64,000 nucleotides of DNA from Bacteroidales bacterium (lineage in GTDB: Bacteria; Bacteroidota; Bacteroidia; Bacteroidales; VadinHA17): positions 4,499 through 68,498 of the forward strand of contig JARKQN010000089.1 in NCBI GenBank assembly GCA_029974835.1. The letters are read 5' to 3'. Below are positions 26,841-48,510 of this stretch, one piece after another. Position 1 is the stretch's first letter, and each line of letters starts with the position of its first letter. Below the pieces are notes generated by a model, which had not been told where the DNA came from, did no database searches, and was given only the letters and a program-made list of their open reading frames with translations. The position numbers and the translations under genes were made by a program.

Positions 26841-28769
26841 CTAAAGATAGTTTACATAGCCCTCCATGTTTGTGCGGATTTTGTAAATCCGGCTGTAGCT
26901 TACAATATAAAGGGTTTTCATGTCGTCGTCGCCAAAGCAGAGACTAACGGGGAAGGTTGGAAGATTAATCATTCCGACAAATTCCCCTTTTGCATTGAAA
27001 ATCTGGACGCCGTAATGGGTTGCAACGTAAATATTTCCCATCTTATCAATAGCCATTCCGTCGGCACTTGACGATTTGCCTTTTCGGTCGAGGACATTAT
27101 CGACGAGGAAAAGTCTGGCGAACTTTCTTCCGTTAGTGATAGTTCCGTCATCCTTTACATCGTATGCCCAGACATAATTTTCTTTATCGCTGTTTACCGG
27201 ATACCACGATTCATCATCATAACAGTTATTGATATACAAAGTTTTGCCGTCGGGAGAAAGAAGGATTCCATTCGGCATTGCGAATTCATTGGGTTCGGTT
27301 ATACGGATTATTTTACCTTCAGGGTTCACGTAATAAACAGCACGTCCGGGCTGGTTTTTGACGGCCTGAGGAGTAAACTGCGGGTCGGTGAAATAAATGC
27401 CGCCTTTCGTATCGGTAATTATGTCATTAGGTCCGTCGATTGGTTTCCCGTCATAACTATCGGCTACCACTCTTACAACCTGTCCTTTGGTGGTCATTTC
27501 AATAACCCTGTGACCAAACATGTCGCATACAAGCAGGTTGCCGTTTTTATACGGATAAAGTCCGTTTGTCTGCATTTTACCTTCCACGATATTCCTGTAG
27601 GAACCGTCGGGATTCAGTTCGACGAGGGAACTCTTTTTCGGGTCACCGTTCCATCCCTGATCGAAAAACATATTTGAAAGATAAACCTTTCCGTTCAGCC
27701 ATTTTGGTCCTTCGGTAAAGGTCAGATTAGGTTTTGTAACTTTACCGTCGACAAGCAGTTCGGGTTTTGCACCTTCAGGGATAATGGCGTGGAATGCAGT
27801 GAGCCTGGCTTTCTCCTTTTCGGTGTAGTCGGCTCTGGCCGGCCAGAAAATATCTATGGCATCACATCCAAGGTCTCCTACCTTTGCACCGTGAACCATA
27901 TTTCCCGGAATAAGAACAACGTTATCCTTTGCCATAGGCTGCTCGGTGTCGAGAAGAATCTCGTCACAGCCTCCGCGAAGCACCAGCATTGTCTGCTCTT
28001 CGGGATGTATATGTTTGTCGAAAAGAGCTCCCGGATCCATTGAGATAAAGCTAATCTGAACATTTTTTCCGGTTATCAGCCTTGAATTGGCGCCCGTCGT
28101 AAGTTCGGTAAGCTGTAAGTCATAAAGGTCATATACCTGGTTTGGTTTGATATTCGGGGTTGCAGGGCTGGGAATATCAGCATTTGACCCGGGGATATTT
28201 TCTACCCCTGCTTTCCGGAGGTAATCGAGTCTCACGGGGCTGTAGACCTCAACAATTTTTGCACCCGAAGGTCCTGCCGTCAGAGCATTTGTACTGCCTT
28301 TTTCAAGATAAACAAAATCGACCCTGGGAGTTCCGCTGTGGGTTCCATCCTGTTCTTCTCTCCTGAGAGCAATCATTTTGACATTCTCGCCGTTGATAAG
28401 CTGATTTACTTCTCCTTCCAGCACGAACATAAATCTGTCGGCCGTAAGGGTCTCCTCAGGTATCCGGGCATCAGGGTCAAGGTTAACAACACTGGTCATT
28501 ACGCCGGTTCCCCAATAGAGTTTTGCATTTACACCGGGATACAAAGGTGTTGCAGGCAATGATTCGAGACCTGCAACTTTTCCGGCCTCAAGGTTGGAAA
28601 CAATTCCTGTTTTCGGAAGGCCTTTGATTTTTCTTACGGTTAAGGCATTCTGACTGATAAGCTCGTTGTTCTTTTTCTGCCATTCGGGGCCTGATGTACA
28701 GCATGGCATGAGCAGAATCAATGCCAGCAGCCCTGTAAAAACTGTGAGTTTTGAAAATGCCGGTTTCAT
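26841..28769 (-). CDS. Lipoprotein fusing a bicupin region to an SMP-30/gluconolactonase/LRE-like beta-propeller
   Basis: 642 aa with the signal ILLMPCC. The second cupin has an intact metal motif (FDKHIHPEEQTMLVLRG ... IPGNMVHG), while the first is degenerate. The C-terminal ~300 aa carry SGL-type motifs (GPNDIITDTKGGIYFTD, MPNGILLSPDGKTLY, ADGMAIDKMGNIYVA). Confidence 0.7.
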   Translation of the reverse strand: MKPAFSKLTVFTGLLALILLMPCCTSGPEWQKKNNELISQNALTVRKIKGLPKTGIVSNLEAGKVAGLESLPATPLYPGVNAKLYWGTGVMTSVVNLDPDARIPEETLTADRFMFVLEGEVNQLINGENVKMIALRREEQDGTHSGTPRVDFVYLEKGSTNALTAGPSGAKIVEVYSPVRLDYLRKAGVENIPGSNADIPSPATPNIKPNQVYDLYDLQLTELTTGANSRLITGKNVQISFISMDPGALFDKHIHPEEQTMLVLRGGCDEILLDTEQPMAKDNVVLIPGNMVHGAKVGDLGCDAIDIFWPARADYTEKEKARLTAFHAIIPEGAKPELLVDGKVTKPNLTFTEGPKWLNGKVYLSNMFFDQGWNGDPKKSSLVELNPDGSYRNIVEGKMQTNGLYPYKNGNLLVCDMFGHRVIEMTTKGQVVRVVADSYDGKPIDGPNDIITDTKGGIYFTDPQFTPQAVKNQPGRAVYYVNPEGKIIRITEPNEFAMPNGILLSPDGKTLYINNCYDDESWYPVNSDKENYVWAYDVKDDGTITNGRKFARLFLVDNVLDRKGKSSSADGMAIDKMGNIYVATHYGVQIFNAKGEFVGMINLPTFPVSLCFGDDDMKTLYIVSYSRIYKIRTNMEGYVNYL

Positions 28770-28808
28770 AGATTTTAAAGTTTAAATGATAGTTGATAGT
28801 ATTTTAAG

Positions 28809-30206
28809 TTATTTCTGTTTTTCGGTAGTAACGTTTCTTTTTCCAAGAGGATCGTCAGACTGGTCCATCCCGACCACATCGTAGCCAAACCACTGGTATG
28901 CTTTGGCAAGAGCAGCCGTTTTGGGCCATGCCTCATCATGTTCTTTTGTTTTTGTCCATGCCTGGCGATGTTCTTCGGTATCGAACATCAGTTCCATTTC
29001 GAAGTTGAAATTCGTTGAAGGGGAGCCAATTTTCCTTGAAAAATCATCGGGGAAGCGCCGGAGCAGTTTAGAACCGAGATAGCCCACCTGTTTTCTGAGG
29101 GCGGGCACGTAAACCTCGATATAGTTTTTCTCGAATGCCTCAAAATTCTTGGGTTCCACTTCGAAAAACATCTGAAGCTTGGCCATAGTAAGAGGGACAT
29201 CAACAACATCGAGTTTCCCTTTTTCGAGGGCAACGCCGTAAACGATCATTTCAAGAGGTTCGTTTGCCGAGCTTTCGAGTGAATGAATTTCACCCGCCTT
29301 TACGGGCACGGCATCGCCATAGGCTATTTCGGCCCATTCGTCATTTACATAAACCTTTCCCTTGCCTTTAATAACAAAATAAACTTCATCAACACCTGCA
29401 TGGTAATGTCTTCCGACAGAGGCACCGACAGGTATCAGGAGATGATCGACAAATGCCCAGTTTGAAACGAATGCTCCCGGGCCAAGGGCTCTCCTGTAAA
29501 AAACGGTATCCTTTCCTCCGTTCATACCCGCCACCGGACGCAATGAAGCTTTTGTTAGCTGACCGGTACTGATGAATGTAGGCTTTTTATCAAGTGTAAC
29601 TCCAACGCGGTCATCACCTATGTCGAAAGTACCTGTGGGGTCGGCAGAGTAGTTAAATCCGCCTCTGCGGACCGGAGGAGCCGAAGTTCCTGAGGGAGCG
29701 GCAGGGGTCGCATAAGTTGTGACCGGAGCAGATGTAGTTACTGCCACGTTAAAATTAACCCAGTCGGCCGGTTTGGCTGAAGGGTTATAGACAGCATGTG
29801 AGTTACCCGAACTGCAGGGTACACCTACCGGTCCTTTAAGAAGAGCCGTCCTTCCGTTGACGGTAAATTCGCAGTCGGCATCAAGGATGAGGAACATTTC
29901 ATCGGAGTTGGTATGAAAATGATGGCCTATAGAACTTTTTGGTCCGAGGGGTCCGTGATGCATGAAGTTAAGACCCGTAATGGCACCCCTCCCGAGTAAT
30001 GTCTGCATTTGCAACGTTCCTGCACCCTGGTGGACATTTTTACTTACCATCGCCCTGGAGGGGTCTGAATGTCCAATACGGTTTGCAAGGGGCACTGTTT
30101 TGGATTTTTCCTGAGCTCCGAGAGGAGCAGCGGCGATCAATAAAATAGTCAGAAAAATGGAGGCAATTATTGACGCCCTTTCATTAATATTTCTTTTTCT
30201 TTTCAT
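28809..30206 (-). CDS. Secreted bicupin metalloprotein with a C-terminal ABM/Dabb-like domain
   Basis: 465 aa with a signal peptide ending APLGAQE. There are two complete cupin metal motifs: GHHFHTNSDEMFLILDADCEF...SGNSHAVYN and GRHYHAGVDEVYFVIKGKG...AGEIHSLE. The ~100-aa tail (MFFEVEPKNFEAFEK...) resembles antibiotic-biosynthesis-monooxygenase-like domains. Confidence 0.65.
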   Translation of the reverse strand: MKRKRNINERASIIASIFLTILLIAAAPLGAQEKSKTVPLANRIGHSDPSRAMVSKNVHQGAGTLQMQTLLGRGAITGLNFMHHGPLGPKSSIGHHFHTNSDEMFLILDADCEFTVNGRTALLKGPVGVPCSSGNSHAVYNPSAKPADWVNFNVAVTTSAPVTTYATPAAPSGTSAPPVRRGGFNYSADPTGTFDIGDDRVGVTLDKKPTFISTGQLTKASLRPVAGMNGGKDTVFYRRALGPGAFVSNWAFVDHLLIPVGASVGRHYHAGVDEVYFVIKGKGKVYVNDEWAEIAYGDAVPVKAGEIHSLESSANEPLEMIVYGVALEKGKLDVVDVPLTMAKLQMFFEVEPKNFEAFEKNYIEVYVPALRKQVGYLGSKLLRRFPDDFSRKIGSPSTNFNFEMELMFDTEEHRQAWTKTKEHDEAWPKTAALAKAYQWFGYDVVGMDQSDDPLGKRNVTTEKQK

Positions 30207-30261
30207 AAGTTGTAAATTTCAGGTTATATTATAAATAAATACAGAGACAAAATACTGAAGG

Positions 30262-31794
30262 TTATATCCAGAGCTTATCGTATGTTCTTCCCGGATTATC
30301 CCATTCGGGCGTAGCGTCGAAATATACGGCTCCTTTTGTCATTCTTGCCTTTAGGTTCTCGTCGTTAAGCTCGATTCCGAGTCCGGGAGCATCGAGAGGT
30401 ACGTTTGCAAACCCCTTGGTGATCATAGGCTGTGAGCCGGTCATTTTCACGAGGCCTTCCCACCACGGGTTATCGGTATTATGATGTTCAAGAGCCAGGA
30501 AGTTTTCGGTGGCGGCGGCACAATGAACGTTAGCCATGAAGGCGACGGGTGTGCTGTTTGCATGGAGGGCCATTGCTATGCCGGCCTCTTCGGCATAGTC
30601 GCCTATTTTCTTGGTTTCAAGAATTCCTCCTGCGCTTACAAGGTCGGGGTGAATTATATCGACAGCCTGTGAGTCGATCAGTTTCTTAAATCCGCCGAGC
30701 ATGCCTCCGAGCATATAAATATCCTCACCGGTGCAGATGGGTGTTTCAAGGGCATCCTTGATGGATTTGAGCTGGTCGGTATAATACCAAGCGACGCAAT
30801 CCTCGAGCCAGGCAAGCCTGTATTTTTCGACCGCGCGGCCGATACGTATAATCTGGTTCATGTCCATATGTCCGAAATGGTCTACGGAAAGAGGGACCTC
30901 AGTGCCAACGACATTTCTTACATCCTCAACTACCTTTACAATTTCTTCAATGCCCTTGTCGGTAACCTGAACCTGTGTGAAAGGATGGTCGAGTTTCCAG
31001 TAATCGAGATATCCGCCGTTTGCATAACCGCGTCCCATGTACCAGTTATTAATGCCTCCGCCGTTCTGGTCCCAGTATTTGTAATTTACTATTCCCTGTT
31101 CCTTGTTACTGATTTGATGGATTCCCAGGTCCATTTTGAGCCATGTGAAGCCCTGTTCGGTCAGGCGCTTTTTCAGCATATCCATCTGCACTTTAGGATC
31201 CCTGGCTTCAGGTGTATCTGCATAGAGCCGGATTTTGTCGCGGTATCTGCCGCCGAGGAGCTGCCAGACCGGAACACCCAGTGCTTTTCCGCACAGGTCC
31301 CAGCAGGCCATTTCAACGGCGCTCACCCCGCAACCCTGGCGGCCATGAAAGCCGAACTGTTTAATCACCTTGAATATCATTTCGACATTACAGGGATTCA
31401 GTCCTACTATTTTGCTTTTAAGAAACAGAGCCAGACGCTGGTCGGAGCCATCCCTGATATCGCCGATACCGTAAATGCCCTGGTTGGTGTCGATACGGAT
31501 AATGCGGTTCGCCATAGTTCCCCTGTTGCCTTTTTCGGCCACACGGAGATCAGTAATTTTAAGGTCGGAAGGACTTGAGGCCCTGGATACTTTCTGGGTT
31601 GTCTGGGCAATAGTGTCTTCTATTGAAAGATGGACAAGACCTCCCAGAGCAATACCACCCAGGGCGGCTTTTTTCAGGAAATTCCTGCGGTCATTCGGTG
31701 TGGCGGGGTTGGCTATTTCCGCATCTATGGCAGCCCTTTGAGCCCGTTCTTCTTTTCTTGTTTTTTCACCAATTTCTTTAAGAATGTTTTTCAT
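30262..31794 (-). CDS. Enolase-superfamily (mandelate racemase/muconate lactonizing enzyme family) protein with a twin-arginine export signal
   Basis: 510 aa. The Tat-like motif DRRNFLKKAALGGIALGGL is present. Candidate metal ligand motifs are WLKMDLG, LAWLEDC and CTGEDIY, together with IIHPDL and MALHANS, as in acid-sugar dehydratase subgroups. Confidence 0.75.
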   Translation of the reverse strand: MKNILKEIGEKTRKEERAQRAAIDAEIANPATPNDRRNFLKKAALGGIALGGLVHLSIEDTIAQTTQKVSRASSPSDLKITDLRVAEKGNRGTMANRIIRIDTNQGIYGIGDIRDGSDQRLALFLKSKIVGLNPCNVEMIFKVIKQFGFHGRQGCGVSAVEMACWDLCGKALGVPVWQLLGGRYRDKIRLYADTPEARDPKVQMDMLKKRLTEQGFTWLKMDLGIHQISNKEQGIVNYKYWDQNGGGINNWYMGRGYANGGYLDYWKLDHPFTQVQVTDKGIEEIVKVVEDVRNVVGTEVPLSVDHFGHMDMNQIIRIGRAVEKYRLAWLEDCVAWYYTDQLKSIKDALETPICTGEDIYMLGGMLGGFKKLIDSQAVDIIHPDLVSAGGILETKKIGDYAEEAGIAMALHANSTPVAFMANVHCAAATENFLALEHHNTDNPWWEGLVKMTGSQPMITKGFANVPLDAPGLGIELNDENLKARMTKGAVYFDATPEWDNPGRTYDKLWI

Positions 31795-31831
31795 GGTTGT
31801 TAGATTAATTTGGGTTAAAATGATGAGGGGT

Positions 31832-32764
31832 TTACCAGTTTCTCTCTCTCATGTACCTCTCGAACTGTTCGGGGGTCATAGGAAGGGTACCGTGGTATTT
31901 TTTGACAAATTCAAGGAAATCCTTTTTGATTTCTTCTGACCACTGACTATCTATCTGGCCAGGGGTGTACCTGCCTTCCTTCAGGCGGGCCCATCCGAAT
32001 TCGTCGCGTATCTGTGTTACTTCGGAGGTCACGACCACCTCTTCCAGAAGATGGGCAGGGATAAAGAGCACGCCATGGCTTTTGGCCAGTACGGCATCGC
32101 CAGGCAGCACTGTTGCATGACCGATGCGTATAGGAGTGTTTATAGAGGTAAGCATCATCTTCTGGAGGAATGACGCATCAATTCCTTTCGACCAGCTGTT
32201 GAAGCCATCTATCATTTTCAAGCCTTCAGGATCCCGGACTGTACCGTAAACGATTACTCCCCTTTTGGATTTGGCATAAATTGCGTTTCCGAGATTATCG
32301 CCGAGGATAGGTCCATCCTGCACCTTGCCGTAGGAATCGGCGACATAGACATCTCCGTTTTTAAGAATATCGATTGGCCATGAATTAGTGGGGGGATTTG
32401 ATCTGTTTTCCTTTTTTCCCTGGGCCTTCACCCACTCGTCGAGGTCGGGTCGCAGAGGCATATACTGGGCAGTGACCACCCGGCCGGTCATGGCCTGGTC
32501 GGGAAAGAGGACCGTCCAGTCGCCTTCGAACTGGCATTCGTAGCCTCTGTTACGGAGAACCGACCATGCAGCTTCGATGGGAACTTTCTTAAGTCGTTCG
32601 AGGAGGTCATCCGGAACTTTTGGCCGCCCGTCGTCAAAGCGTTCACCCTTCCACTGGTAAGTAATGGCTTTGATATATTCAGGAGGGGCCCCCACATTCT
32701 GGGCAAATGCAGTAATACTTAGTATTAAAAGGAAACCGATAATTACAGGCTTGTTTGGTTTCAT
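31832..32764 (-). CDS. Secreted RraA-like / HMG-aldolase-fold protein (paralog 1)
   Basis: 310 aa with signal peptide ILSITAFAQ. It has an N-terminal extension conserved with the ORF at 43674-44729 (W.GERF.DGRPKV.DD...R......EAW). The RraA-type core includes GDNLGN..., GTVRD and ATVLPGDAVLA..HGVLFIPAHL. Confidence 0.65.
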   Translation of the reverse strand: MKPNKPVIIGFLLILSITAFAQNVGAPPEYIKAITYQWKGERFDDGRPKVPDDLLERLKKVPIEAAWSVLRNRGYECQFEGDWTVLFPDQAMTGRVVTAQYMPLRPDLDEWVKAQGKKENRSNPPTNSWPIDILKNGDVYVADSYGKVQDGPILGDNLGNAIYAKSKRGVIVYGTVRDPEGLKMIDGFNSWSKGIDASFLQKMMLTSINTPIRIGHATVLPGDAVLAKSHGVLFIPAHLLEEVVVTSEVTQIRDEFGWARLKEGRYTPGQIDSQWSEEIKKDFLEFVKKYHGTLPMTPEQFERYMRERNW

Positions 32765-32808: not shown

Positions 32809-32840
32809 AAAAAATAAGGAGCCGTAAAAAACGGCTCCTT
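32809..32840 (-). terminator. Intrinsic terminator/attenuator downstream of susD-like gene 2
   Basis: On the minus strand the sequence reads AAGGAGCCGT-TTTTT-ACGGCTCCTT followed by ATTTTTT. This is a 10-bp stem lying 57 nt after the susD stop. Confidence 0.75.
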
Positions 32841-32896
32841 ATAATTGTTTCATTTTAAAACATGATTACATTGCACAAAATGAATATACCTCAGTG

Positions 32897-34531
32897 TTAC
32901 TGTACATCCCAAAAAACCCTGGTAGTCACAAAATCTCCACCTATTTTGGCCGCAGCAGCTTCAACATTTACTTTATTTCTTCTATATTCAGCATCAGTAT
33001 AACGATATCTGTGAACAAATCCATCCCCTCCGTTTAGCAGAAAATTATCGTTATATTTATTGCGCTCTAACACAGGATAACCGCTTCTTCTCCAGTTATA
33101 CCAGGCTTCCCTGGGGTCCCATATATTGACAACCCAATATTGAGTATTTATAAGTTTAAGTGCATCGGCACTATTCCATGCTACTAACGGGTGAGCAAGA
33201 TAAGTCGCTTTTTCGGCATCAGTAATTTTGGTAGGAAATGGTATAATTGCCGAGCTTAACGTAGTAGTTGCTATTAATTCATACCTGTCCATATCTGCTT
33301 TTATGGCATTTTCGTAATATACCTGAGCTTGTGCATCGCCTCCGGGTATCCATCCTCTAAAGGCAGCTTCGGCAAGATTGAGCGAAACTTGCGAATACAT
33401 AAGCCAGTACTGCGGCGTTAACGTCGACGCACCTGCCTGTACATTCATCTGAGAATAATCCAGCCCGTTGGTTATGGGATGCTTCCCTCTGTATAAACCT
33501 GCATTAGCAGGATCCGTAATCACATCAGCCGGTACTCCTACAGGTACTCCAAACTGATCCGCCCAGTCAAGACTTCCGGTTGCTTTCTGAGGGTTAACAG
33601 CGTCATCAAATTTTGCAATAATATACTTGCTCCTCGGATCTTGGGTATTTTTTAACTGATTTACAAACGGCTCGGCTGCATAATAATAGTACGGATTGGT
33701 TGCGGGATTTACAAGATTAGCGTGTCTTCCGTTTGAAAAATTTGGTGGCGTAAAAGTTACCATTACATTATCATCGTTAGACGTCATTACTCCGGCATTA
33801 AACGCTTCAAGCGCAAGTGCGGCACCTTTTGTCGGATTCAACTTGGAATAACGCAGGGCCATGCGCAACAACAGAGAATTGCCAACCTTTTTCCACTTAG
33901 CCACCTGATCTGCAGCATTCGTTGTTTTATTATAGCCATTTGGTCCAAAGAAAACATCGTATGTCAAGAAATCTTTATTTGGATCTAACGCTGCAACTGC
34001 TTCCCTGATTTCTTTTTCAAGGTCGTTGTAAATTTCCTGAGCATCGTCATATTTGGGCCTCCAATACTCCGGGCCTTCAGCGGCTCTTAATGCATCAAAG
34101 TAGGGAACATCGCCATGTTTGTCAACTATGTTCATATACACAAAGGCTCTCCATATACGGATAACGCTTTTGAGGTTTGTTCTTTCAGGATATTTTTCAT
34201 CAATTATTTCCAGAAGATTTTTAAATGTCATAAGAGTACCTGTATAATTACCCCATTCCGCATTTTGTTGCCCCTGGACATCGTAATTAAAATTAAACCC
34301 TGCTGTAGCGCCCAAATTATATGCAAGCTCAAAATATTGAACTACAGTAGCTTCAGATTCCCAGCCGTTACCTTGCCCGACACGTTGCGATCCGGCAAAA
34401 ACCATTCCGGGATCCAAATCTGTTATGGTATATTTTTGATTTTTAAGTGCTAATTCATCAAAACCCTTGTCGCATCCCACAAATAAAAGCAGGAAAGCAC
34501 TCATGAATGTTATTATCTTAAACTTTTTCAT
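32897..34531 (-). CDS. SusD-like nutrient-binding lipoprotein (SusD-like_2 type)
   Basis: 544 aa located directly downstream of susC-like gene 2. The lipoprotein signal is LLLFVGC, with TPR-like helical SusD features. Confidence 0.8.
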   Translation of the reverse strand: MKKFKIITFMSAFLLLFVGCDKGFDELALKNQKYTITDLDPGMVFAGSQRVGQGNGWESEATVVQYFELAYNLGATAGFNFNYDVQGQQNAEWGNYTGTLMTFKNLLEIIDEKYPERTNLKSVIRIWRAFVYMNIVDKHGDVPYFDALRAAEGPEYWRPKYDDAQEIYNDLEKEIREAVAALDPNKDFLTYDVFFGPNGYNKTTNAADQVAKWKKVGNSLLLRMALRYSKLNPTKGAALALEAFNAGVMTSNDDNVMVTFTPPNFSNGRHANLVNPATNPYYYYAAEPFVNQLKNTQDPRSKYIIAKFDDAVNPQKATGSLDWADQFGVPVGVPADVITDPANAGLYRGKHPITNGLDYSQMNVQAGASTLTPQYWLMYSQVSLNLAEAAFRGWIPGGDAQAQVYYENAIKADMDRYELIATTTLSSAIIPFPTKITDAEKATYLAHPLVAWNSADALKLINTQYWVVNIWDPREAWYNWRRSGYPVLERNKYNDNFLLNGGDGFVHRYRYTDAEYRRNKVNVEAAAAKIGGDFVTTRVFWDVQ

Positions 34532-39042: not shown

Positions 39043-39053
39043 ATTTTAAAGTG

Positions 39054-42384: not shown

Positions 42385-42414
42385 AAAAAAGGGCAGGCAG
42401 ATTATTGCTGCCTG
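42385..42414 (-). terminator. Intrinsic terminator overlapping the stop codon of the DUF362 gene
   Basis: On the minus strand the sequence reads CAGGCAG-CAATAAT-CTGCCTG then CCCTTTTTT. The 7-bp GC-rich stem is followed by a T6 tract. Confidence 0.6.
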
Positions 42415-43553
42415 TTCCGGTTGTCGGGCTGTGCGGGAGCCTGTTGCGGTGGCCTCTGTGGCTGCGGCAGATTCAGGGGGTCTTTCCATTCGAGCTGTGA
42501 GGCAATGTTTGATCCCATTTTATAGTTAATAATACTTTTATCGGGATCCTTATCGCCTATGATTTCAATTTTGTCCCTGTCCATATTACCTATTCCTGCA
42601 GCAGCGCAGTAATTGATATATCCCACATTTTCAAGCGGTATCCCCATAAGGCGGGCGCACATGCTGTCGATGGCAACGGCGTCAAAACCGGCCAGGGCAA
42701 CCCTGTGATCAACCGGAGTGCCGCTGATGGGGCCGTTACCTTCCATGCCTTCAACACCATCGATAATTGTAAAATCGGGCCTGACCCCCTGGGCCATCAG
42801 AAACATGTTATAGTGCAGCCAGCGCGAACCGCCTGCGTGCATGTTTCTTTTATAGCTTATCGGTCTGCCTCCATTCACCACGGTGCCGGGATTCAGGGGG
42901 GCTGCCATGGTTATGTTTTTTATACCACCGGTCATTACCACGGTATTATGGGTTTTAAGCCTTGAAAGAGAAATGATATAATAATCGGGATTGGCGAAAA
43001 TATCTGCGATTTCAATTTTATCGAGGTGAAGATTCCGGTCGATGATAAAATATGGTTTCCCTTTGTTTTCTGCATTAAGGTCTACAAATCTGATATTATA
43101 GTCCTTCTCAAGGTCGGTGTAACCGTAGTTTTTAAAGCCGTCGGAAGAATTGACGCTGGAGCTTGATTCGGCTATAATGATCTGGCCCTTGTAGAAGGGT
43201 TTGACATATTCAAGCAGGGCGCGCAGGGCATCTTTGTGTGTTGCACACAGGTCCCTGTTTGTAACCACCATATTTGGTTTGATCACCAGTTGTTTTTTCT
43301 TCAGGCCGGCCTTTAATTCCTTATCGAAAGGTTTGATTACCTCGAACATCATATGCATGCGGTCGGTTCCTGTGGTAAATGATACGGGGCTGCGTCCGGA
43401 AAAATTTGTGGGTTTGGCAGGAGCATTTTTCACGGAGGGATCTGCAGCGAGTACGTCGCCGAATCCGGATGACAACATTGCTGCGGAGCCTAAACCCAGC
43501 ATCCTGAGGGCATTTCTCCGTCCTATAACCAGTTGTTTTTCAGATGAACTCAT
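42402..43553 (-). CDS. Tat-exported DUF362-domain protein with a Pro/Gln-rich C-terminal tail
   Basis: 383 aa with Tat-like GRRNALRMLGLGSAAML. The DUF362-like core is QLVIKPNMV...IIIAESSS. The tail is LPQPQRPPQQAPAQPDNRNRQQ. Confidence 0.6.
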   Translation of the reverse strand: MSSSEKQLVIGRRNALRMLGLGSAAMLSSGFGDVLAADPSVKNAPAKPTNFSGRSPVSFTTGTDRMHMMFEVIKPFDKELKAGLKKKQLVIKPNMVVTNRDLCATHKDALRALLEYVKPFYKGQIIIAESSSSVNSSDGFKNYGYTDLEKDYNIRFVDLNAENKGKPYFIIDRNLHLDKIEIADIFANPDYYIISLSRLKTHNTVVMTGGIKNITMAAPLNPGTVVNGGRPISYKRNMHAGGSRWLHYNMFLMAQGVRPDFTIIDGVEGMEGNGPISGTPVDHRVALAGFDAVAIDSMCARLMGIPLENVGYINYCAAAGIGNMDRDKIEIIGDKDPDKSIINYKMGSNIASQLEWKDPLNLPQPQRPPQQAPAQPDNRNRQQ

Positions 43554-44729: not shown

Positions 44730-44837
44730 GGTATGTCCTCCGTTATTTGGTTATGTTTACTAAGTGGATGTTGCCGCAATACATGTTTATTAAGATTTAT
44801 TGTTGAAGTCTGTTAAATTATACCAAATTATCTATAA

Positions 44838-44851
44838 TGCAACCGGTTGCA
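44838..44851. promoter_or_regulatory. Perfect 14-bp palindrome TGCAACCGGTTGCA (LacI/GalR-type operator candidate)
   Basis: It lies in the 168-bp gap upstream of the RraA-like gene (start 44729). It fits the TGnAAnCGnTTnCA pattern. Confidence 0.4.
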
Positions 44852-44897
44852 AAATGAAAGGGGGATATTTTAATTATTATTAACATTTATCGGGTAG

Positions 44898-46193
44898 TTA
44901 CTTCCTGATCTTTTGCTCCTTTGGTTTTGGTTCTCTCTGGCTCCAGAAGCTGGCAAGGGAAGAGGCTGCTATATTCATCCAGGTGCCGAAAATAAGAGGT
45001 GCAAGAGCTGCGGCCTGGCTTTTAAGCACGTCGTATGCCAGCCCTACTGCAAGCCCTGAATTCTTCAGTCCGACCTCGATGGTGAGAGCTCTTACATCCT
45101 CGTCACTTAGCCTCAACAGCCTGGAAGTTCCGTAACCCAGGCCGAACCCTATTAAGTTATGCATAATTGTAGCGATAAAAAGCGCAGGTCCTATTGTGAG
45201 CAGGGTGGCCTTATTGTGCGCCGCAACTATGACAATATAAAGCATAATTGCGCCGAGGGATAGTTTCGGCAGAACGAGGTCCATCCAGTTTTCAGGACCC
45301 TGTGTGCGGCGTATTACGATAATGGTTACTGATACAATGGTGACTGCCCATGAAACAAGAATCAGACCTGTCTGAAGAGATTTAACAACGGCCGGGAAAG
45401 GAATAAAGATTATTATCAGGCCTGCGATGAAGGTGGCAATTCCGAGGATAATCATATTTGCATCCTTTTTGACCCACTCCATTTTGCCGTAAAGGATTTT
45501 ATTCGCAATTATACCGGCAAAAATCGGGATCAGTATCATGTTGACGATGCTGAGCATCATATTGGTGGCATTAACCTCAATAAGCTGGCCGGCAAATGCC
45601 ATCATTAACAGGGGTGTTACAACCGGGGAGAGGAGAGTGGCGAAAGTTGTAACCGTAACCGACAGTGCCAGGTTTCCTTTAGCAAGGTATGTCATTACGT
45701 TTGAGGCAACACCTCCGGGGCAGGCTCCTACCAGGATAATACCGGCTGCAACTTCGGGAGGAAAATTCCATACCTTTATTATAAGAATGGCTGCAAGAGG
45801 CATCAGGATAAAAACCATTACGGTTCCGGCAATCACCACCAGGGGTTTTGAAAGTTCCTTTATGAAATCGCCTATGTTCAGCTTTGTGCCCATCCCGAAC
45901 ATAATCACCTGAATTGAGGGTACAATAAGTTTATTTGTGTTGAAGCCCCAGTTGGTGAACATTTCGGGAAAGTAGAGTGTGAATGAGACAAATGCAAAGA
46001 TTTGCAGGGTAAATGACAATCCTTTGAATTTCTCTGATTTCTGCGCGCTGAAAGCCAGAGCGTAAAACATTGCAAACAGTACCAGTCCGGAGACGGGCAG
46101 ATTACCGTTACGGGTGGCAAGAAGGAGGATTTCAGCTATGGCCAGCAGGCCTGCAAATGCAAGATACATTTTTACTGCGCCGGAGTTTTTCAT
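44898..46193 (-). CDS. Bile acid:sodium symporter (BASS)-family inner-membrane transporter
   Basis: 431 aa and polytopic. The segments GIILVGACPGGVASNVMTYLAKGN and TIEVGLKNSGLAVGLA resemble the two BASS core repeats. Confidence 0.65.
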   Translation of the reverse strand: MKNSGAVKMYLAFAGLLAIAEILLLATRNGNLPVSGLVLFAMFYALAFSAQKSEKFKGLSFTLQIFAFVSFTLYFPEMFTNWGFNTNKLIVPSIQVIMFGMGTKLNIGDFIKELSKPLVVIAGTVMVFILMPLAAILIIKVWNFPPEVAAGIILVGACPGGVASNVMTYLAKGNLALSVTVTTFATLLSPVVTPLLMMAFAGQLIEVNATNMMLSIVNMILIPIFAGIIANKILYGKMEWVKKDANMIILGIATFIAGLIIIFIPFPAVVKSLQTGLILVSWAVTIVSVTIIVIRRTQGPENWMDLVLPKLSLGAIMLYIVIVAAHNKATLLTIGPALFIATIMHNLIGFGLGYGTSRLLRLSDEDVRALTIEVGLKNSGLAVGLAYDVLKSQAAALAPLIFGTWMNIAASSLASFWSQREPKPKEQKIRK

Positions 46194-46209
46194 ATTGAAT
46201 TAAGGTTTT

Positions 46210-47145
46210 TCAGGTGGATAAAAACTTAATCACAGTATCCTTAATCTGTTCAGGTTGTAGTCCGTATTTACCAAGAAGTTCTTCATAAGGGCCGTTGCTT
46301 GCGTAGAAATCACCGATTCCGATCATTTTCATTTTTACCGGGTATTCCTGGCTGCATAATTCTGCAATTGCACTGCCAAGACCTCCGGCTATGAAATGTT
46401 CCTCCACTGTTACTATCCGGCCTGTTTCCCTGGCAGCCTTAAGAATAAGGTCCCTGTCGAGAGGTTTGACGGTATGAATATCAATAAGTCTGACGCTGAT
46501 GCCTGATTTTTCAAGAAGCCCGGCTGCTGCGACGGCCTTTGAGAGAACGGTCCCTGTTCCTACAAGGGTCACATCACTACCCTCTTTCATTACTATTCCC
46601 CTGCCTGTGGTAAAGGTTACGTCTTCAGGATATAGGACCGGCATTTTAGGGCTTCCTATTTTCATATAGCAGGGCCCTGTATGATTTATCATGGCATGCA
46701 CGGCTTTCCTGATTGTGACCGGATCTCCGGGATTGAATATAGTAACGCCCGGAATTGTTCGTATAATGGCGACGTCATCAATTGAATGGTGTGTTGACCC
46801 CAGCTGGTCGTAGGTGAGTCCGGCGCACCTCCCCACCACTTTCACGTTCTGATTCATATAACCGAGGTCGTTGCGGAACATTTCAAAAGGTCTGGCAGTG
46901 ACAAAGGGGGCGATGGCGGCGAAAACAGGTATTTTTCCCGTTGTGGCAAGTCCGGAAGCAAAACCGATTACACCCTGTTCCATTATGCCGAATTCAAAAT
47001 GTCTGTCCGGGAATCTTTCGGGGAAGGCTCCCAGTCCCGATCCGGAACTGCTGTCGGCAGACAGGACCACCACATTGGGATTTTTCTCTGCAGCTTCAAT
47101 GACAGCCTCACCGAAAGTTTTTCTTGGATCTTTCAGTTCATTCAT
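46210..47145 (-). CDS. Transketolase, C-terminal (pyrimidine-binding) subunit
   Basis: 311 aa with FGIMEQGVIGFASGLA and GSTHHSIDDVAIIRTIPG motifs. It overlaps the N-terminal subunit gene by 8 nt. Confidence 0.88.
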   Translation of the reverse strand: MNELKDPRKTFGEAVIEAAEKNPNVVVLSADSSSGSGLGAFPERFPDRHFEFGIMEQGVIGFASGLATTGKIPVFAAIAPFVTARPFEMFRNDLGYMNQNVKVVGRCAGLTYDQLGSTHHSIDDVAIIRTIPGVTIFNPGDPVTIRKAVHAMINHTGPCYMKIGSPKMPVLYPEDVTFTTGRGIVMKEGSDVTLVGTGTVLSKAVAAAGLLEKSGISVRLIDIHTVKPLDRDLILKAARETGRIVTVEEHFIAGGLGSAIAELCSQEYPVKMKMIGIGDFYASNGPYEELLGKYGLQPEQIKDTVIKFLST

Positions 47146-48007
47146 TTCCGGTAATACTTTTCAGTTTCTTTTTCAGTGAATTTTCTATTTCATCGAGGTC
47201 CTGTTCAGCCCGGGTCATTTCCTCCGGGGTAGCTTTCCAGTAATGGTAGTTAACTTTTCTTTCGGCAAAGCTCAGGCCTTTTGATTTTATAGTGTCCGCA
47301 ATAATTACGGAAGGTTTTCCCTTTTCAAAAGGTAACTCCCGGGCATTACTTATGATAGAATTGAAGTCATGGCCGTCGATTGTTCTGACACTCCATCCGA
47401 AGGAGCGCCATCTTTCCTCAAGAGGCTCATAGTTCATAACCTTTGTGGTAGGGCCGCTTATCTGCAGCTGGTTTCTGTCGACAAATACAAGTATATTTTC
47501 TATTTTGTGCATTGATGCAGCGGCGGCAGCTTCCCAGTTTGAACCTTCTGCAAGTTCACCGTCTCCCATTAAAACAAAAACTCTGGCAGGTGATTTGTCC
47601 ATTCTAATTCCCAGAGCCATTCCTCCGGCAATTGAAAGGCCATGCCCCAGAGCTCCGGTATTTGTTTCAACACCCGGAAGTTTATGCATATTCGGATGGC
47701 CTGGAACCGGGCTGTCGAGAGCACCGTAGGTATCGAGGATAGATAAATCAAAATAACCTCGTTCTGCAAGGGCAGCGTAAAGGACAAGGCATTTATGGCC
47801 TGCAGAAAGAACAAAACGATCTCTTTCCGGCCACCGTGGGTTGGAAGGATCGTTGTTCATAATATTAAAATAGAGTGCGGTTACGATTTCGACTGATGAA
47901 AGGGCGCCGCCTACATGGCCGGCTTCTCCGGCTCTTATAAGCCTCAGGATATGCCTTCTGATTTTAAGGGCTGTAAATTCAAGATTCAGTAATTCCAATT
48001 GATCCAT
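47138..48007 (-). CDS. Transketolase, N-terminal (thiamine diphosphate-binding) subunit
   Basis: Motifs GHVGGALSS, SAGH and GDGELAEGSNWEAA (ThDP/Mg motif) are present. I prefer Met35 (MDQLELLN...) because the track start at 48109 would overlap rpiB2 by 73 nt. Confidence 0.85.
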   Translation of the reverse strand: MDQLELLNLEFTALKIRRHILRLIRAGEAGHVGGALSSVEIVTALYFNIMNNDPSNPRWPERDRFVLSAGHKCLVLYAALAERGYFDLSILDTYGALDSPVPGHPNMHKLPGVETNTGALGHGLSIAGGMALGIRMDKSPARVFVLMGDGELAEGSNWEAAAAASMHKIENILVFVDRNQLQISGPTTKVMNYEPLEERWRSFGWSVRTIDGHDFNSIISNARELPFEKGKPSVIIADTIKSKGLSFAERKVNYHYWKATPEEMTRAEQDLDEIENSLKKKLKSITGNE

Positions 48008-48036
48008 CTGAAAACCTGGTTGCTGCGAATAAATAT

Positions 48037-48510
48037 TCAGATCTGATGTTTCCGGGCATATTCCATATAACATGCCACCTTGGGTTCCGAAGGTGTTCCG
48101 GGCTGCCATTTTGATTCCATCCAGACTCTTACAATCTGTTTGGCAACTTCGGTTCCTGTGGTGAAGGCGCCCATTGTAAGCACATTGGCATTATTACTTT
48201 TTATGGCTCTTTCCGCCGAATAGGTGTCGGAGCAGAGTGCTGCATAAACTCCGGGAACTTTGTTTGCCGCGATACTCATGCCGATGCCTGTCCCGCAAAG
48301 AAGTATACCCCTGTCAAATTCACCCGCAGCCACTGCTTCACCAACTTTAAATGCAACCCTTGCATATATCGGATCATCACTGCCAAAATCCTTTACTGCA
48401 AATCCCATCTCTTTCAGCAGCGAAATAATTATCTCTTTAAGAGATGATGCATTCGGGTCGCAACCGATTGCCACACTAATTTTTTTCTCTCCTGAAGGTA
48501 AATTACTCAT
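48037..48510 (-). CDS. RpiB/LacA/LacB-family sugar-phosphate isomerase (second copy in window)
   Basis: 157 aa with IGCDPNA and LCGTGIGMSIAANK (catalytic Cys loop). It is the first gene of the minus-strand operon facing the HTCS gene. Confidence 0.8.
   Translation of the reverse strand: MSNLPSGEKKISVAIGCDPNASSLKEIIISLLKEMGFAVKDFGSDDPIYARVAFKVGEAVAAGEFDRGILLCGTGIGMSIAANKVPGVYAALCSDTYSAERAIKSNNANVLTMGAFTTGTEVAKQIVRVWMESKWQPGTPSEPKVACYMEYARKHQI

Follow-up and report, generated by a model that had tools for sequence, protein, structure and literature searches.

Results

Gene content of the locus

Sixteen co-oriented minus-strand genes lie between a divergent HTCS regulator and a strong bidirectional hairpin, within a window of 64,000 nt of a Bacteroidales bacterium genome (assembly GCA_029974835.1, contig JARKQN010000089.1, positions 4,499 to 68,498 of the forward strand). 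The genes are separated by gaps of -73 to 168 nt and are listed in Table 1 together with neighboring features. The observation made in the original prediction was confirmed. All of its family assignments were reproduced with Pfam and NCBIfam models: cupin+SGL, bicupin, MR_MLE enolase, two RraA-like proteins, SusD, SusC, PfkB, 2-Hacid_dh, DHDPS, TAL_FSA (a weak match), DUF362, SBF/BASS, split transketolase and RpiB. A significant match to a GH or PL family had been named in advance as an outcome that would overturn the prediction, but no Pfam or NCBIfam GH, PL or CE model matched any of the 16 proteins at E<=0.01; dbCAN profiles were not searched.

Some details of the prediction had to be corrected. 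The gene of the transketolase N-terminal half probably starts at 48007 rather than 48109, given that homologues are 287-289 aa and that this start removes the 73-nt overlap. The tail of the bicupin, which had been described as ABM-like, has no Pfam hit here, but it is supported by an alpha+beta ferredoxin-like fold in the structural model and by PF03992 hits in longer homologues. Strong hairpins are also present after susD and after the DUF362 gene, which means that a single transcript is not assured; co-transcription was not tested. Finally, conserved CAZyme-type genes were found just outside the 16-gene run.

Table 1. Features of the SusC/D locus and its surroundings. Coordinates are those of the window; L numbers denote related loci.
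Coordinates	Strand	Gene	Assignment	Basis
26841..28769	-	g01	Predicted lipoprotein: degenerate cupin, metal cupin (H253, H255, Q259, H293), SMP-30/gluconolactonase beta-propeller	Pfam SGL 2.4e-34 and Cupin_2; PDB gluconolactonases 3e5z and 3dr2; cupin domain versus 4e2g 1e-10 and CelOCE 9bwf 2e-5, with aligned HxHPxxQ...H; Cys-containing signal peptide conserved in L172 and L173
28809..30206	-	g02	Secreted bicupin with C-terminal ferredoxin-like (ABM-like) domain; both cupins carry HxH..E..H	Pfam Cupin_2, two stretches; AF2 model (pLDDT 70) with cupin, cupin and alpha+beta domain; Foldseek returns generic bicupins
30262..31794	-	g03	Tat-exported enolase-superfamily protein resembling an acid-sugar dehydratase	MR_MLE_N and MR_MLE_C; galactonate/ManD/arabinonate dehydratase models below their cut-offs; PDB ManD/GalD relatives; D305, E331 and E357 at 26/26 spacing
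31832..32764	-	g04	Secreted RraA/HMG-aldolase-fold protein (type a)	Pfam RraA-like 3e-16; PDB 5x15 and 3noj with the VRD motif aligned
32814..32842	-		12-bp-stem hairpin followed by a T run after susD; possible internal terminator or attenuator
32897..34531	-	g05	SusD-like lipoprotein	Pfam SusD-like_2 3.7e-59
34559..37831	-	g06	SusC-like TonB-dependent transporter	CarbopepD_reg_2 and Plug domains
37984..39042	-	g07	PfkB kinase resembling KDG/KDGal kinase, cytoplasmic	Pfam PfkB; NCBIfam KDG_KDGal_kin 220 bits; kinase part of the KDPG-aldolase/kinase fusion model 345 bits; 85-97% identical in relatives
39054..40019	-	g08	D-2-hydroxyacid dehydrogenase	Pfam and NCBIfam
40016..40903	-	g09	DHDPS/NAL-family class I aldolase or dehydratase	Pfam DHDPS 1.7e-45; weak matches to archaeal KD(P)G aldolase and KdgD models; GSNGE, YNAP and GLKDS motifs
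40928..42262	-	g10	Long (444 aa) transaldolase-like protein	TAL_FSA 52 bits; motifs matching TalB D/E/K/N-T/S-F-R; absent from about half of the related loci
42394..42414			Strong hairpin after the DUF362 gene
42402..43553	-	g11	Tat-exported DUF362 protein (LarA clan)	Pfam DUF362 8.4e-39; Foldseek top hits on a low-confidence model (pLDDT 51) are LarA-superfamily structures; clan CL0471 (PMC11770544)
43674..44729	-	g12	Secreted RraA-fold protein, third paralogue type	Pfam RraA-like; 36% identical to g04; signal peptide conserved in 42 homologues
44898..46193	-	g13	BASS/SBF-family inner-membrane symporter	Pfam SBF 1.5e-33; PanS-like 196 bits
46210..47145	-	g14	Transketolase C-terminal half	Pfam and NCBIfam
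47138..48007	-	g15	Transketolase N-terminal (ThDP) half; ORF runs to 48109	Pfam and NCBIfam; start from homologue lengths
48037..48510	-	g16	RpiB/LacAB-family sugar-phosphate isomerase	Pfam 5.7e-45; RpiB subfamily model passes; D-erythrulose-4-P isomerase model 145 bits, below its cut-off
48791..52792	+		Divergent hybrid two-component system regulator	Reg_prop, Y_Y_Y, HisKA, HATPase, REC and HTH_AraC domains; divergent position conserved in L090, L092, L118 and L121
52813..54333	-		Secreted GH51-type alpha-L-arabinofuranosidase	Alpha-L-AF_C; ArfA model 412 bits, below its 625 cut-off; orthologues of 66-90% identity next to the operon in L090, L118, L172 and L173 at different positions
54766..55572	+		Secreted CBM9-like protein	CBM9_1; homologues of 58-63% identity flank the operon in L170/L171
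55639..56724	+		Secreted stand-alone Reg_prop beta-propeller protein	52% homologue inside the L171 operon; homologues of 54-65% identity in the RraA loci L030, L032, L044 and L059, directly next to the RraA gene in L044 and L059
25137..26771	+		Secreted 544-aa protein of an unclassified family, convergent on the operon end; candidate carbohydrate-active enzyme with weak beta-helix similarity	No Pfam hit; weak PL29-family match (BT_3328) 7.5e-8; pectin-lyase 7chu at E 0.13; 4256 representative relatives, often fused to CBM32-like, CBM6, CBM96 or dockerin domains; orthologues of 71-75% identity at the same place in L172 and L173
26793..26821	.		13-bp-stem bidirectional hairpin, scoring as a terminator on both strands
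16246..17967	-		IlvD/Edd-family dehydratase resembling L-arabinonate dehydratase	877 bits against a cut-off of 882 for L-arabinonate dehydratase; 87% orthologues directly upstream of RpiB in L133 and L137; 71-74% homologues beside SusC/D-RraA-enolase in three Chitinophagaceae/Sphingobacteriales loci

Export signals

The original prediction would also have failed had the export signals of the six enzymes from normally cytoplasmic families lacked support. These signals are visible in the sequence and were found to be conserved in homologues. A twin-arginine motif is carried by 97 of 104 enolases, and a hydrophobic N-terminus is present in 88 of 98 RraA proteins. R12 and R13 are invariant in 29 DUF362 homologues. 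The NCBIfam TAT_signal model scores 20.7 bits on the enolase, above its cut-off of 16.7. In contrast, the cytoplasmic members have no N-terminal extension, and all ATP-, NAD- or ThDP-dependent enzymes of the locus lack signals, which also holds in homologues.

Conservation and genomic context

The gene order RpiB-TK-TK-BASS-RraA-DUF362-(TAL)-DapA-2HADH-PfkB-SusC-SusD-(RraA)-Tat-enolase recurs in at least 25 metagenome contigs, at 62-97% identity and with indels. The cupins and the transaldolase-like gene are optional accessories. The core of the cluster, a secreted RraA-fold protein next to a Tat-exported enolase-superfamily dehydratase, is adjacent and co-oriented in 72 of 80 genome loci sampled from Bacteroidales, Cytophagales, Chitinophagales, Sphingobacteriales and Flavobacteriales, with BASS in 41 and SusC in 32 of these loci. 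The original prediction had not recognized this pair as a phylum-wide module. A KdgK-like kinase, Zn-ADHs, FGGY kinase, glycerate kinase, UxuA and a PQQ dehydrogenase occur as neighbors, and a relative carries a C4 acid-sugar kinase/PdxA unit next door. An IlvD resembling L-arabinonate dehydratase recurs beside the module in distant lineages.

The cluster had been regarded as an atypical PUL without CAZymes, but this is true only for the operon itself. The secreted GH51 arabinofuranosidase, the CBM9-like protein and the unclassified protein with weak beta-helix similarity keep their linkage to it in relatives, even when rearranged, alongside GH43, GH127, GH10 and esterase genes.

Discussion

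This study revealed a conserved operon in which a SusC/D pair is associated with six predicted exported enzymes and with a cytoplasmic KDG-like kinase/aldolase set, a split transketolase, RpiB and a transaldolase-like protein. Its substrate is unknown, and we found no characterization of the operon in the literature. In our best reading, to which we assign a probability of about 45%, this is an HTCS-controlled, SusC/D-fed operon for an acidic sugar or short acidic oligosaccharide of aldonate or uronate type, probably derived from arabinose-rich hemicellulose or pectin. The substrate would cross the outer membrane through SusC/D and be processed in the periplasm by the lactonase-cupin lipoprotein, the bicupin, the LarA-clan DUF362 protein, which is possibly a 2-hydroxy-acid epimerase, the Tat-exported enolase-superfamily dehydratase and the two RraA-fold class-II aldolase/lyase-type enzymes. 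The product would be a 2-keto-3-deoxy acid, or pyruvate plus a small aldehyde. The BASS symporter would import the keto acid, which would be cleaved by the KDG-kinase-like PfkB and the NAL/DapA-type aldolase, whereas the 2-hydroxyacid dehydrogenase, the split transketolase, RpiB and the optional transaldolase would feed the C2-C5 remainder, or released pentoses, into the pentose-phosphate pathway. Gene content, family membership, catalytic motifs, conserved export signals, conserved gene order and recurrent neighbors were established by our analysis, while the substrate class, the order of the reactions and the localization in vivo are inferred.

The interpretation given in the original prediction is partly supported. 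Two readings had been proposed without a choice between them: lactone hydrolysis and dehydration of an oxidized or acidic sugar leading to a keto-deoxy acid, or chemistry resembling aromatic ring cleavage. The former fits much better. The enolase scores 177 bits on galactonate dehydratase and 150 on ManD, against 57 on muconate cycloisomerase; it is closest to galactonate, mannonate and arabinonate dehydratases and has the acidic residue spacing of those enzymes. The kinase is closest to KDG/KDGal kinases, the DapA-family protein to NAL and KD(P)G aldolases, and the BASS protein to the keto-acid carrier PanS. Both RraA proteins keep the Arg-Asp motif aligned with CHA aldolase 3noj. The SGL domain is closest to gluconolactonases, including an exported one, and members of the LarA clan epimerize or racemize 2-hydroxy acids, including gluconate/mannonate. 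The recurrent neighbors are hemicellulose and arabinose enzymes and the L-arabinonate-dehydratase-like IlvD. The compartments are also consistent with this reading, as the six enzymes predicted to be exported come from families whose known chemistry uses a bound metal or, in the LarA clan, a tethered cofactor, and not ATP, free NAD(P)H or thiamine diphosphate.

Nevertheless, several features are not readily accounted for. No enzyme reaches an equivalog cut-off, and consequently no substrate can be named. A periplasmic dehydratase/aldolase route for free sugar acids has no obvious advantage and no described precedent that we know of, and if RraA cleaves the keto-deoxy acid in the periplasm, the cytoplasmic KdgK-like kinase and the second aldolase look redundant. 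SusC/D, the HTCS and the linked GH51, CBM9 and unclassified secreted-protein genes point to a glycan rather than a monomer. The roles of the cupins, of DUF362 and of the stand-alone propeller are guesses; the DUF362 model was poor and the fold search with the bicupin did not discriminate between functions. No oxidizing enzyme that would generate an aldonate was identified, unless the cupin of the lactonase fusion, which has the His/His/Gln/His spacing of the CelOCE copper site, does this.

The conserved Bacteroidales cluster pairs an outer-membrane glycan importer with exported enzymes from families that normally process small sugar acids inside the cell. These enzymes may show how these bacteria use acidic plant-wall fragments without glycosidases.

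Gene content and family assignments

The original prediction of a SusC/SusD operon without a recognisable GH, PL or CE enzyme holds as an observation. Sixteen ORFs fill the minus-strand run, with gaps from -73 to 168 nt, between a divergent 1333-aa hybrid two-component regulator (HTCS) and a 13-bp-stem hairpin that scores as a terminator in both directions. Pfam and NCBIfam reproduced every family that had been named: cupin plus SMP-30/gluconolactonase (g01), two Cupin_2 stretches (g02), the MR_MLE enolase superfamily (g03), RraA-like (g04 and g12), SusD and SusC (g05 and g06), PfkB (g07), D-2-hydroxyacid dehydrogenase (g08), DHDPS/NAL (g09), a long, weak TAL_FSA match (g10), DUF362 (g11), SBF/BASS (g13), split transketolase (g14 and g15) and RpiB (g16). 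A significant hit of any of these proteins to a known GH or PL family had been set beforehand as a result that would overturn the claim. No GH, PL or CE model matched any of the 16 proteins, although this holds only at the sensitivity of Pfam and NCBIfam, as dbCAN was not run. One small correction concerns g15, which most likely starts at 48007, given that its homologues are 287-289 aa and that this start removes the 73-nt overlap with g16.

Strong hairpins after susD and after DUF362 may divide the run into up to three transcription units. A sigma-70 promoter scan, which is uninformative for Bacteroidota, gave scores at the level of shuffled sequence, and an Rfam scan of the whole window found no riboswitch or other RNA.

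Coordinates of the features discussed (window positions unless a relative's locus is named)
Position	Strand	Feature
1-13600		Housekeeping region: MORN-repeat protein, NadA, HemN-like radical-SAM protein, xylose-isomerase-like TIM-barrel protein, patatin, peroxiredoxin, GT2 and TPR protein
13593-26771	+	Second PUL-like block
13593-14966	-	BNR_2 sialidase-fold lipoprotein
15069-16187		GH10-like xylanase
16246-17967	-	IlvD/Edd protein resembling L-arabinonate dehydratase
18407-19573		Feruloyl-esterase-like protein
20022-24871		SusC/SusD of the second block
25137-26771	+	Secreted 544-aa protein with no Pfam family, convergent on the 3' end of the operon
26793-26821	both	13-bp-stem terminator-like hairpin
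26841-48510	-	Sixteen-gene operon (g01-g16)
31832-32764	-	RraA-fold protein g04
32814-32842		Hairpin after susD
32897-34531	-	susD-like gene (g05)
34559-37831	-	susC-like gene (g06)
42394-42414		Hairpin after DUF362
48007	-	Probable start of g15
48791-52792	divergent	HTCS regulator
52813-54333		Secreted GH51-type arabinofuranosidase, 21 nt beyond the HTCS
54766-55572		Secreted CBM9-like protein
55639-56724		Stand-alone Reg_prop propeller
56933-62397	+	Third uptake unit
56933-57499		ECF sigma factor
57627-58775		FecR anti-sigma factor
58954-61194		STN-domain SusC-like ORF of only 746 aa
61216-62397		393-aa ORF with no Pfam hit
L087, 16240-19466		PdxA-like dehydrogenase and KdgT-transporter/DUF1537 kinase fusion, followed by a GH20-like gene
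L171, 11174-12925		Additional DUF362 paralogue

Export signals

The N-termini show a Cys-containing lipoprotein-type signal in g01, Sec-type signals in g02, g04 and g12, and twin-arginine signals in g03 (DRRNFLKKAALGG) and g11 (GRRNALRMLGLG). Lack of support for export had also been named in advance as grounds for rejecting the prediction. Although SignalP was not run, the signals were found to be conserved features of the families. Among 104 related enolases, 97 have a twin-arginine motif and 83 have RRxF[LIVM], whereas 88 of 98 related RraA proteins have a hydrophobic N-terminus ending around AQ/QNVG. R12 and R13 are invariant in 29 DUF362 homologues, and the NCBIfam TAT_signal model passes its cut-off on g03. 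Homologues of g01, g02 and g12 keep their signals, while homologues of the kinase, dehydrogenase, aldolase, TAL, TK and RpiB have none. The split is chemically coherent, since the exported set comes from families whose known chemistry uses a bound metal or, for the LarA clan, a tethered cofactor, whereas the set without signals needs ATP, NAD(P)H or thiamine diphosphate. This last point is an inference from the known chemistry of these families.

Conservation of the operon and of its core

The window matched metagenome contigs and relatives named Bacteroidales or Prolixibacteraceae MAGs. Conserved co-occurrence of these genes had been proposed as a check of the prediction, and a metagenome scan anchored on DUF362 returned 80 loci. 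In every one long enough to judge (at least 25), the order was RpiB-TKN-TKC-BASS-RraA2-[second DUF362]-DUF362-[TAL-like]-DapA-2HADH-PfkB-SusC-SusD-[RraA1]-Tat-enolase. Enzyme identities were 62-97%, while SusC/D were only 40-77% identical. The divergent HTCS is kept in four related loci (L090, L092, L118 and L121), and the bicupin and cupin-lactonase genes follow the enolase in two others (L172 and L173). At least nine bicupin homologues sit on contigs that match in size those carrying DUF362 homologues and are probably the same contigs. The TAL-like gene, RraA1, an FGGY kinase, a second enolase and a second DUF362 come and go. Additional DUF362 paralogues were seen in the related loci L171, L105, L106 and L157; one is a 583-aa membrane-anchored form, and another, 31-37% identical, lies directly upstream of the main DUF362 gene.

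A genome scan anchored on the secreted RraA protein found at least 585 loci. The 80 best come from Bacteroidales, Cytophagales (Algoriphagus, Dyadobacter, Chryseolinea, Spirosoma), Chitinophagales, Sphingobacteriales, Flavobacteriales and Saprospiraceae, plus one Planctomycetota MAG. In 72 of these 80 loci the RraA gene is adjacent to and co-oriented with a Tat-enolase gene, with a median gap of 56 nt and usually in the order RraA then enolase. BASS is present in 41 loci, SusC in 32 and SusD in 29. FecR anti-sigma, AraC regulators, KdgK-like and other PfkB kinases, two Zn-ADH families, an aldolase-II/SDR fusion and FGGY kinases recur. Many Cytophagales loci consist only of sigma/anti-sigma, SusC/D, two diverged RraA-enolase pairs and BASS. 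Cultured carriers of the core module include Algoriphagus aestuarii KCTC 42199, A. iocasae DSM 102044, Chryseolinea serpens DSM 24574, Saonia flava DSM 29762 and Dyadobacter spp. Three RraA paralogue types exist, of which g12 is the third, and at least 7998 homologues of the RraA protein were scored. The locus in the contig binned as Planctomycetota (L018) is a tandem RraA-enolase/RraA-enolase/BASS arrangement, 67% identical to the Bacteroidota type, which reflects either horizontal transfer or mis-binning. In L088 and L089, which carry a 65% RraA homologue, an IS21-type transposase pair (rve and IstB) is inserted immediately downstream of the RraA gene, where the enolase normally sits; toxin-antitoxin genes lie nearby, and L088 also has a GH78 rhamnosidase.

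The cupins, TK, RpiB, TAL and DapA genes are not part of this wider core. A pooled Pfam census of 99 neighbour families around the RraA/enolase pair across the phylum found no enriched GH family, and the hemicellulase link is therefore specific to this Bacteroidales lineage. Sugar-acid and sugar-oxidation genes appear occasionally among the neighbours, namely a PQQ dehydrogenase, GFO/MocA, UxuA, glycerate kinase, IlvD/Edd and DUF362.

Carbohydrate-related genes around the operon

The locus is not CAZyme-free in context, since several carbohydrate-related genes lie just outside the operon. The GH51-type arabinofuranosidase, the CBM9-like protein, the Reg_prop propeller and the 544-aa protein remain linked to it in relatives, sometimes at different positions. 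The GH51 protein is 90% identical beyond the HTCS in L090 and L118, and 66% identical on the other side of the operon in L172 and L173, next to orthologues (71-75%) of the 544-aa protein. CBM9-like and Reg_prop homologues lie beside and inside the operon in the related loci L170/L171, and Reg_prop homologues occur in four other RraA loci, directly next to the RraA gene in two of them. Relatives also carry two GH43 genes, GH3-CBM6, GH127, GH10 and esterases nearby. The window itself holds GH10-like and feruloyl-esterase-like genes and a second SusC/D pair upstream, and in its third uptake unit the transporter may be split by a stop or a frameshift. No alpha-glucuronidase (GH67 or GH115) was found anywhere in the window.

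The 544-aa protein belongs to a very large unclassified family with 4256 representative clusters. Many of its members are multidomain proteins with CBM32-like, CBM6 or CBM96 modules, dockerins or T9SS tails, and weak pectate-lyase-fold or PL29-family similarity was seen. It is a plausible uncharacterised carbohydrate-active enzyme, possibly with a beta-helix.

The IlvD/Edd protein scores 877 bits, just under the 882-bit cut-off for L-arabinonate dehydratase. Orthologues of 87% identity lie directly upstream of RpiB in the related loci L133 and L137, and homologues of 71-74% identity lie beside SusC/D-RraA-enolase in three distant loci. In L087, a relative with an 85% identical RraA, the PdxA-like dehydrogenase and the fusion with a four-carbon acid-sugar kinase form a C4 acid-sugar (threonate/erythronate-type) unit adjacent to the system.

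Individual proteins

With regard to the enolase g03, both the N-terminal capping domain (MR_MLE_N, 2.1e-11) and the C-terminal barrel domain (MR_MLE_C, 1.9e-44) are present. The three carboxylate metal ligands expected at the ends of barrel strands 3, 4 and 5 correspond to D305, E331 and E357, with the 26/26 spacing of DgoD and ManD. The protein is closest to galactonate, gluconate, mannonate and arabinonate dehydratases and its PDB relatives are ManD/GalD-type proteins. However, it scores below the equivalog cut-offs that would assign a substrate (galactonate dehydratase, 177 bits against 311; ManD, 150 against 550; arabinonate dehydratase, 114 against 650), and it is far from muconate cycloisomerase (56.6 against 335).

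Both RraA proteins have the Pfam RraA-like domain and keep the Arg-Asp motif of the metal and pyruvate site, as VRD and LRD aligned to the GVRD motif of CHA aldolase 3noj. Neither matches LigK/ProA at equivalog level (64.6 bits for g04 and 43.3 bits for g12 against a cut-off of 304.5). PDB entry 5ir2, named 'Cellulase' by its depositors, is an RraA-fold protein that aligns with the RraA-fold core of g04, including a GgIRD motif (E 7e-5). It is a lead only, as a search for this PDB code found no paper.

The DUF362 protein g11 has no solved relative by sequence. A model built from a shallow alignment (70-92% identity) was poor (pLDDT 51), yet its top Foldseek hits were LarA-superfamily structures (4nar, 6d6z and 9eia, at E 3e-3 to 2e-2). 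DUF362 and the LarA domain are stated to share Pfam clan CL0471 (PMC11770544). The model served only as a weak pointer to LarA and not for residue-level claims. These data neither place g11 in the LarA superfamily nor exclude it. DUF362-CBM9-dockerin fusions are reported in lignocellulose enrichments (PMC5742341), which echoes the CBM9 linkage seen here.

The SGL domain of the cupin-lactonase g01 matches gluconolactonases, including an exported one. Its second cupin aligns with the cellulose-oxidising CelOCE, H253, H255, Q259 and H293 corresponding at identical spacing to the copper ligands H44, H46, Q50 and H84 (PMC11946906), and thus has the 3 His + 1 Gln metal site. The match to CelOCE (9bwf) is E 2e-5, the closer hit is the uncharacterised 4e2g, and g01 has DKHIHP, so that the first Pro of the PXHXHP motif is absent; on these grounds we neither assign g01 to the CelOCE sequence cluster (>=30% identity) nor rule it out. 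The bicupin g02 has two HxH..E..H sites and an alpha+beta C-terminal domain. Its structural model was usable (pLDDT 70), but Foldseek returned every kind of bicupin (quercetinase, MncA, oxalate decarboxylase, vicilins) and gave no functional discrimination.

Among the cytoplasmic proteins, the TAL-like protein keeps motifs corresponding to the catalytic Asp, Glu and Lys of TalB, although a PDB sequence search with it returned nothing. BASS is closest to the keto-acid carrier PanS. The best hits of the PfkB protein are KDG/KDGal kinases, below their cut-offs, and the DapA-family protein is closest to NAL and KD(P)G aldolases (100 bits against 390 for the archaeal KD(P)G aldolase) and is not of the Eda type. 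These scores are compatible with a KDG catabolic module without being sufficient to assign one.

Comparison with known systems

As in canonical Sus-like polysaccharide utilization loci of Bacteroidota, there are an adjacent susC/susD pair, a divergent HTCS that is conserved in relatives, exported enzymes, an inner-membrane importer and, in the neighbourhood, CAZyme genes (GH51, and in relatives GH43, GH127 and GH10). In contrast to those loci, the operon encodes no recognisable GH, PL or CE, its exported enzymes belong to small-molecule families (enolase superfamily, RraA fold, DUF362, cupins, SGL), and half of it consists of cytoplasmic central-carbon enzymes. Use of a glycan as substrate was not assayed. 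The cytoplasmic acid-sugar pathways built on the enolase superfamily (D-galactonate DgoD/DgoK/DgoA and glucarate/galactarate GudD/GarL/GarR/GarK) share the enzyme logic and partly the families: an enolase-superfamily dehydratase, a PfkB KDG/KDGal-type kinase, a pyruvate-forming aldolase (class II in GarL, as in RraA-fold aldolases) and a hydroxy-acid dehydrogenase. Here, however, the dehydratase and the class-II aldolase-fold proteins are exported (Tat and Sec) and coupled to SusC/D, no model reaches its equivalog cut-off, and the aldolase fold is RraA rather than HpcH or KDPG.

Compared with HMG/CHA aldolase (LigK/ProA, 3noj) and the RraA family, the RraA-fold proteins have about 100 extra N-terminal residues, a signal peptide and a sugar-type genomic context. 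With regard to LarA, Tat export would suit a cofactor-loaded protein, but there is no sequence-level match, and we know of no characterised DUF362 member; NPN-binding residues and larBCE genes were not examined, as the data comprised a 64-kb window and no reliable structural alignment. The g01 cupin shares the HxHPxEQT motif with CelOCE, a copper cupin that oxidises cellulose to cellobionic acid, and its fusion to a lactonase would fit a C1-oxidised product. In contrast to CelOCE and KdgF, it sits in a three-domain lipoprotein, and its activity and metal are unknown.

Interpretation of the system

We favour an acid-sugar system, with a probability of about 45%. In this view, an aldonate- or uronate-type sugar, or a short acidic oligosaccharide from arabinose-rich plant-wall material, enters through SusC/D. 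In the periplasm, lactones would be opened by the SGL domain, 2-hydroxy-acid stereochemistry may be adjusted by DUF362, and the enolase-superfamily enzyme would dehydrate the acid to a 2-keto-3-deoxy acid. The RraA-fold enzymes would then perform class-II aldolase-type chemistry on it, either retro-aldol cleavage to pyruvate plus an aldehyde, or enolisation and elimination. BASS would import the keto acid, the KdgK-like kinase and the NAL-type aldolase would cleave it, and the dehydrogenase, transketolase, RpiB and transaldolase would dispose of the aldehyde or pentose carbon. The interpretation in the original prediction is supported in part. Of its two alternatives, this mechanism corresponds to the first, periplasmic processing of an oxidised glycan or oligomer followed by a KDG-like pathway, whereas the second, aromatic ring cleavage, is poorly supported.

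Three other readings remain open, two of them unlikely and the third less likely still. In one, the exported enolase, RraA, DUF362 and cupin enzymes are themselves the depolymerising machinery and attack the acidic end or side group of an imported oligosaccharide, for example an aldonic-acid reducing end or a (4-O-methyl)glucuronate branch. The enolase would abstract the proton alpha to the carboxylate and dehydrate, and the RraA-fold enzyme would enolise the resulting 2-keto acid and expel the glycosyl substituent by beta-elimination, the neutral sugars going to the pentose-phosphate enzymes and the keto-deoxy acid to KdgK and the aldolase. This is favoured by the SusC/D and HTCS genes (ECF/FecR in other lineages), which are usually tied to oligosaccharides, and by the several paralogues per operon (three RraA types, one or two enolases and one or two DUF362 genes), as different linkages would require. 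The minimal loci of Algoriphagus-type genomes without a GH, the extracellular DUF362-CBM9-dockerin fusions, the CelOCE-like ligand spacing beside a lactonase, the name of 5ir2, and the absence of GH67 and GH115 from a window otherwise rich in arabinoxylan enzymes point the same way. However, this is purely mechanistic inference: we know of no enolase-superfamily or RraA-fold glycan lyase, enolase-superfamily active sites are capped and suited to small molecules, the CelOCE similarity is weak, and the broad-phylum neighbours of the pair are small-molecule enzymes rather than CAZymes. The other reading, equally unlikely, is a uronate branch of an arabinoxylan, arabinogalactan or pectin system. 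The 544-aa protein and the GH51/GH43 enzymes would release uronate-containing or unsaturated-uronate oligosaccharides, the KdgF/CelOCE-type cupin and the bicupin would act like KdgF and KduI (ring opening and isomerisation), the 2-hydroxyacid dehydrogenase would substitute for KduD, the KdgK-like kinase and aldolase would finish the pathway, and TK, RpiB and TAL would handle xylose and arabinose carbon. GH51, the 544-aa protein, GH43, GH10, CE1-type esterases, GH3 and GH127 recur around the operon, g01 has a 3 His + 1 Gln cupin site of the type seen in CelOCE, whose closest characterised homologues are KdgF and BacB, the kinase is KdgK-like, and extra pentose-phosphate enzymes make sense for a pentose-rich glycan. 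Nevertheless, this reading gives no role to the most conserved exported proteins (enolase, both RraA proteins and DUF362) or to the lactonase domain, the bicupin has no specific similarity to KduI, and the cupins are optional in relatives.

The third is a mosaic of unrelated modules, in which a pentose-phosphate set, a KDG set and an orphan periplasmic set are adjacent by descent in one lineage but belong to separate pathways. The internal hairpins, the occurrence of the RraA/enolase pair elsewhere without TK, RpiB, TAL, DapA or the cupins, and the variable presence of the TAL-like, RraA1, cupin and FGGY genes are consistent with it. In contrast, the order is kept across contigs whose SusC/D are only 40-50% identical while the enzymes are 70-97% identical, the linked genes (GH51, the 544-aa protein, CBM9, Reg_prop and IlvD-like) stay nearby even when their positions change, and a single divergent HTCS is conserved. 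The least likely reading is cupin dioxygenase, cycloisomerase/lactonase and RraA-type CHA-aldolase chemistry in the periplasm on plant polyphenol or hydroxycinnamate glycosides. It rests on the CHA/HMG aldolase of the protocatechuate 4,5-cleavage pathway being the best characterised RraA-fold enzyme matched, on a bicupin fold resembling quercetinase YxaG and salicylate dioxygenase, among others, and on feruloyl-esterase-like genes nearby. Against it, the muconate cycloisomerase and LigK scores are far below their cut-offs, all cytoplasmic partners are sugar enzymes (KdgK-like, NAL-type, TK, RpiB, TAL), no hydratase, hydrolase, CoA-ligase or dehydrogenase of aromatic pathways is present, and the cupins are optional whereas RraA and enolase are core. 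Sulfoquinovose, apiose and erythritol pathways were considered for the TK/RpiB/TAL part and set aside, as no sulfoquinovosidase, apiose-specific or erythritol-specific gene is present and RpiB scores only 145 bits against a 240-bit cut-off on the erythrulose-4-P isomerase model. RG-II Kdo/Dha catabolism, considered because of GH127, GH78 and C4-acid genes in relatives, is still possible but has no specific support.

Novelty and significance

We found no report describing the exported RraA/Tat-enolase pair or this operon, although the literature collection searched has limits and PULDB was not queried. Searches on RraA, HMG-aldolase, mandelate racemase or 'menaquinone methyltransferase' proteins in connection with PULs or SusC/D found nothing relevant, a search on PULs with gluconolactonase or aldonic acid found nothing matching, and the Maribacter arabinogalactan proteome paper does not mention this module. 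Sus-like, regulator-equipped uptake operons are already known; what differs here is that the exported enzymes are not CAZymes but sugar-acid-type enzymes.

PUL prediction and glycan-substrate assignment rely almost entirely on CAZy families. This operon is conserved, SusC/D-linked and regulator-equipped, yet its exported proteins come from families known only for cytoplasmic small-molecule chemistry, and its core, a secreted RraA-fold protein plus a Tat-exported enolase-superfamily protein, is an orphan module spread across most orders of Bacteroidota. A stronger and slightly more doubtful version of the glycan-cleaving reading is also not excluded, in which the exported RraA-fold, Tat-enolase, DUF362 and cupin-lactonase proteins are new classes of non-hydrolytic carbohydrate-active enzymes. 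Together they would remove or degrade acidic sugar units, either aldonic-acid reducing ends left by oxidative enzymes or uronate branches, by carboxylate-assisted dehydration and beta-elimination, which would amount to a GH-independent 'acid-end peeling' route widespread in Bacteroidota. If the system processes sugar acids or acidic oligosaccharides, it would explain how these bacteria use oxidised or uronate-bearing plant-wall fragments, and it would also give functions to DUF362 and to large orphan branches of the enolase and RraA families.
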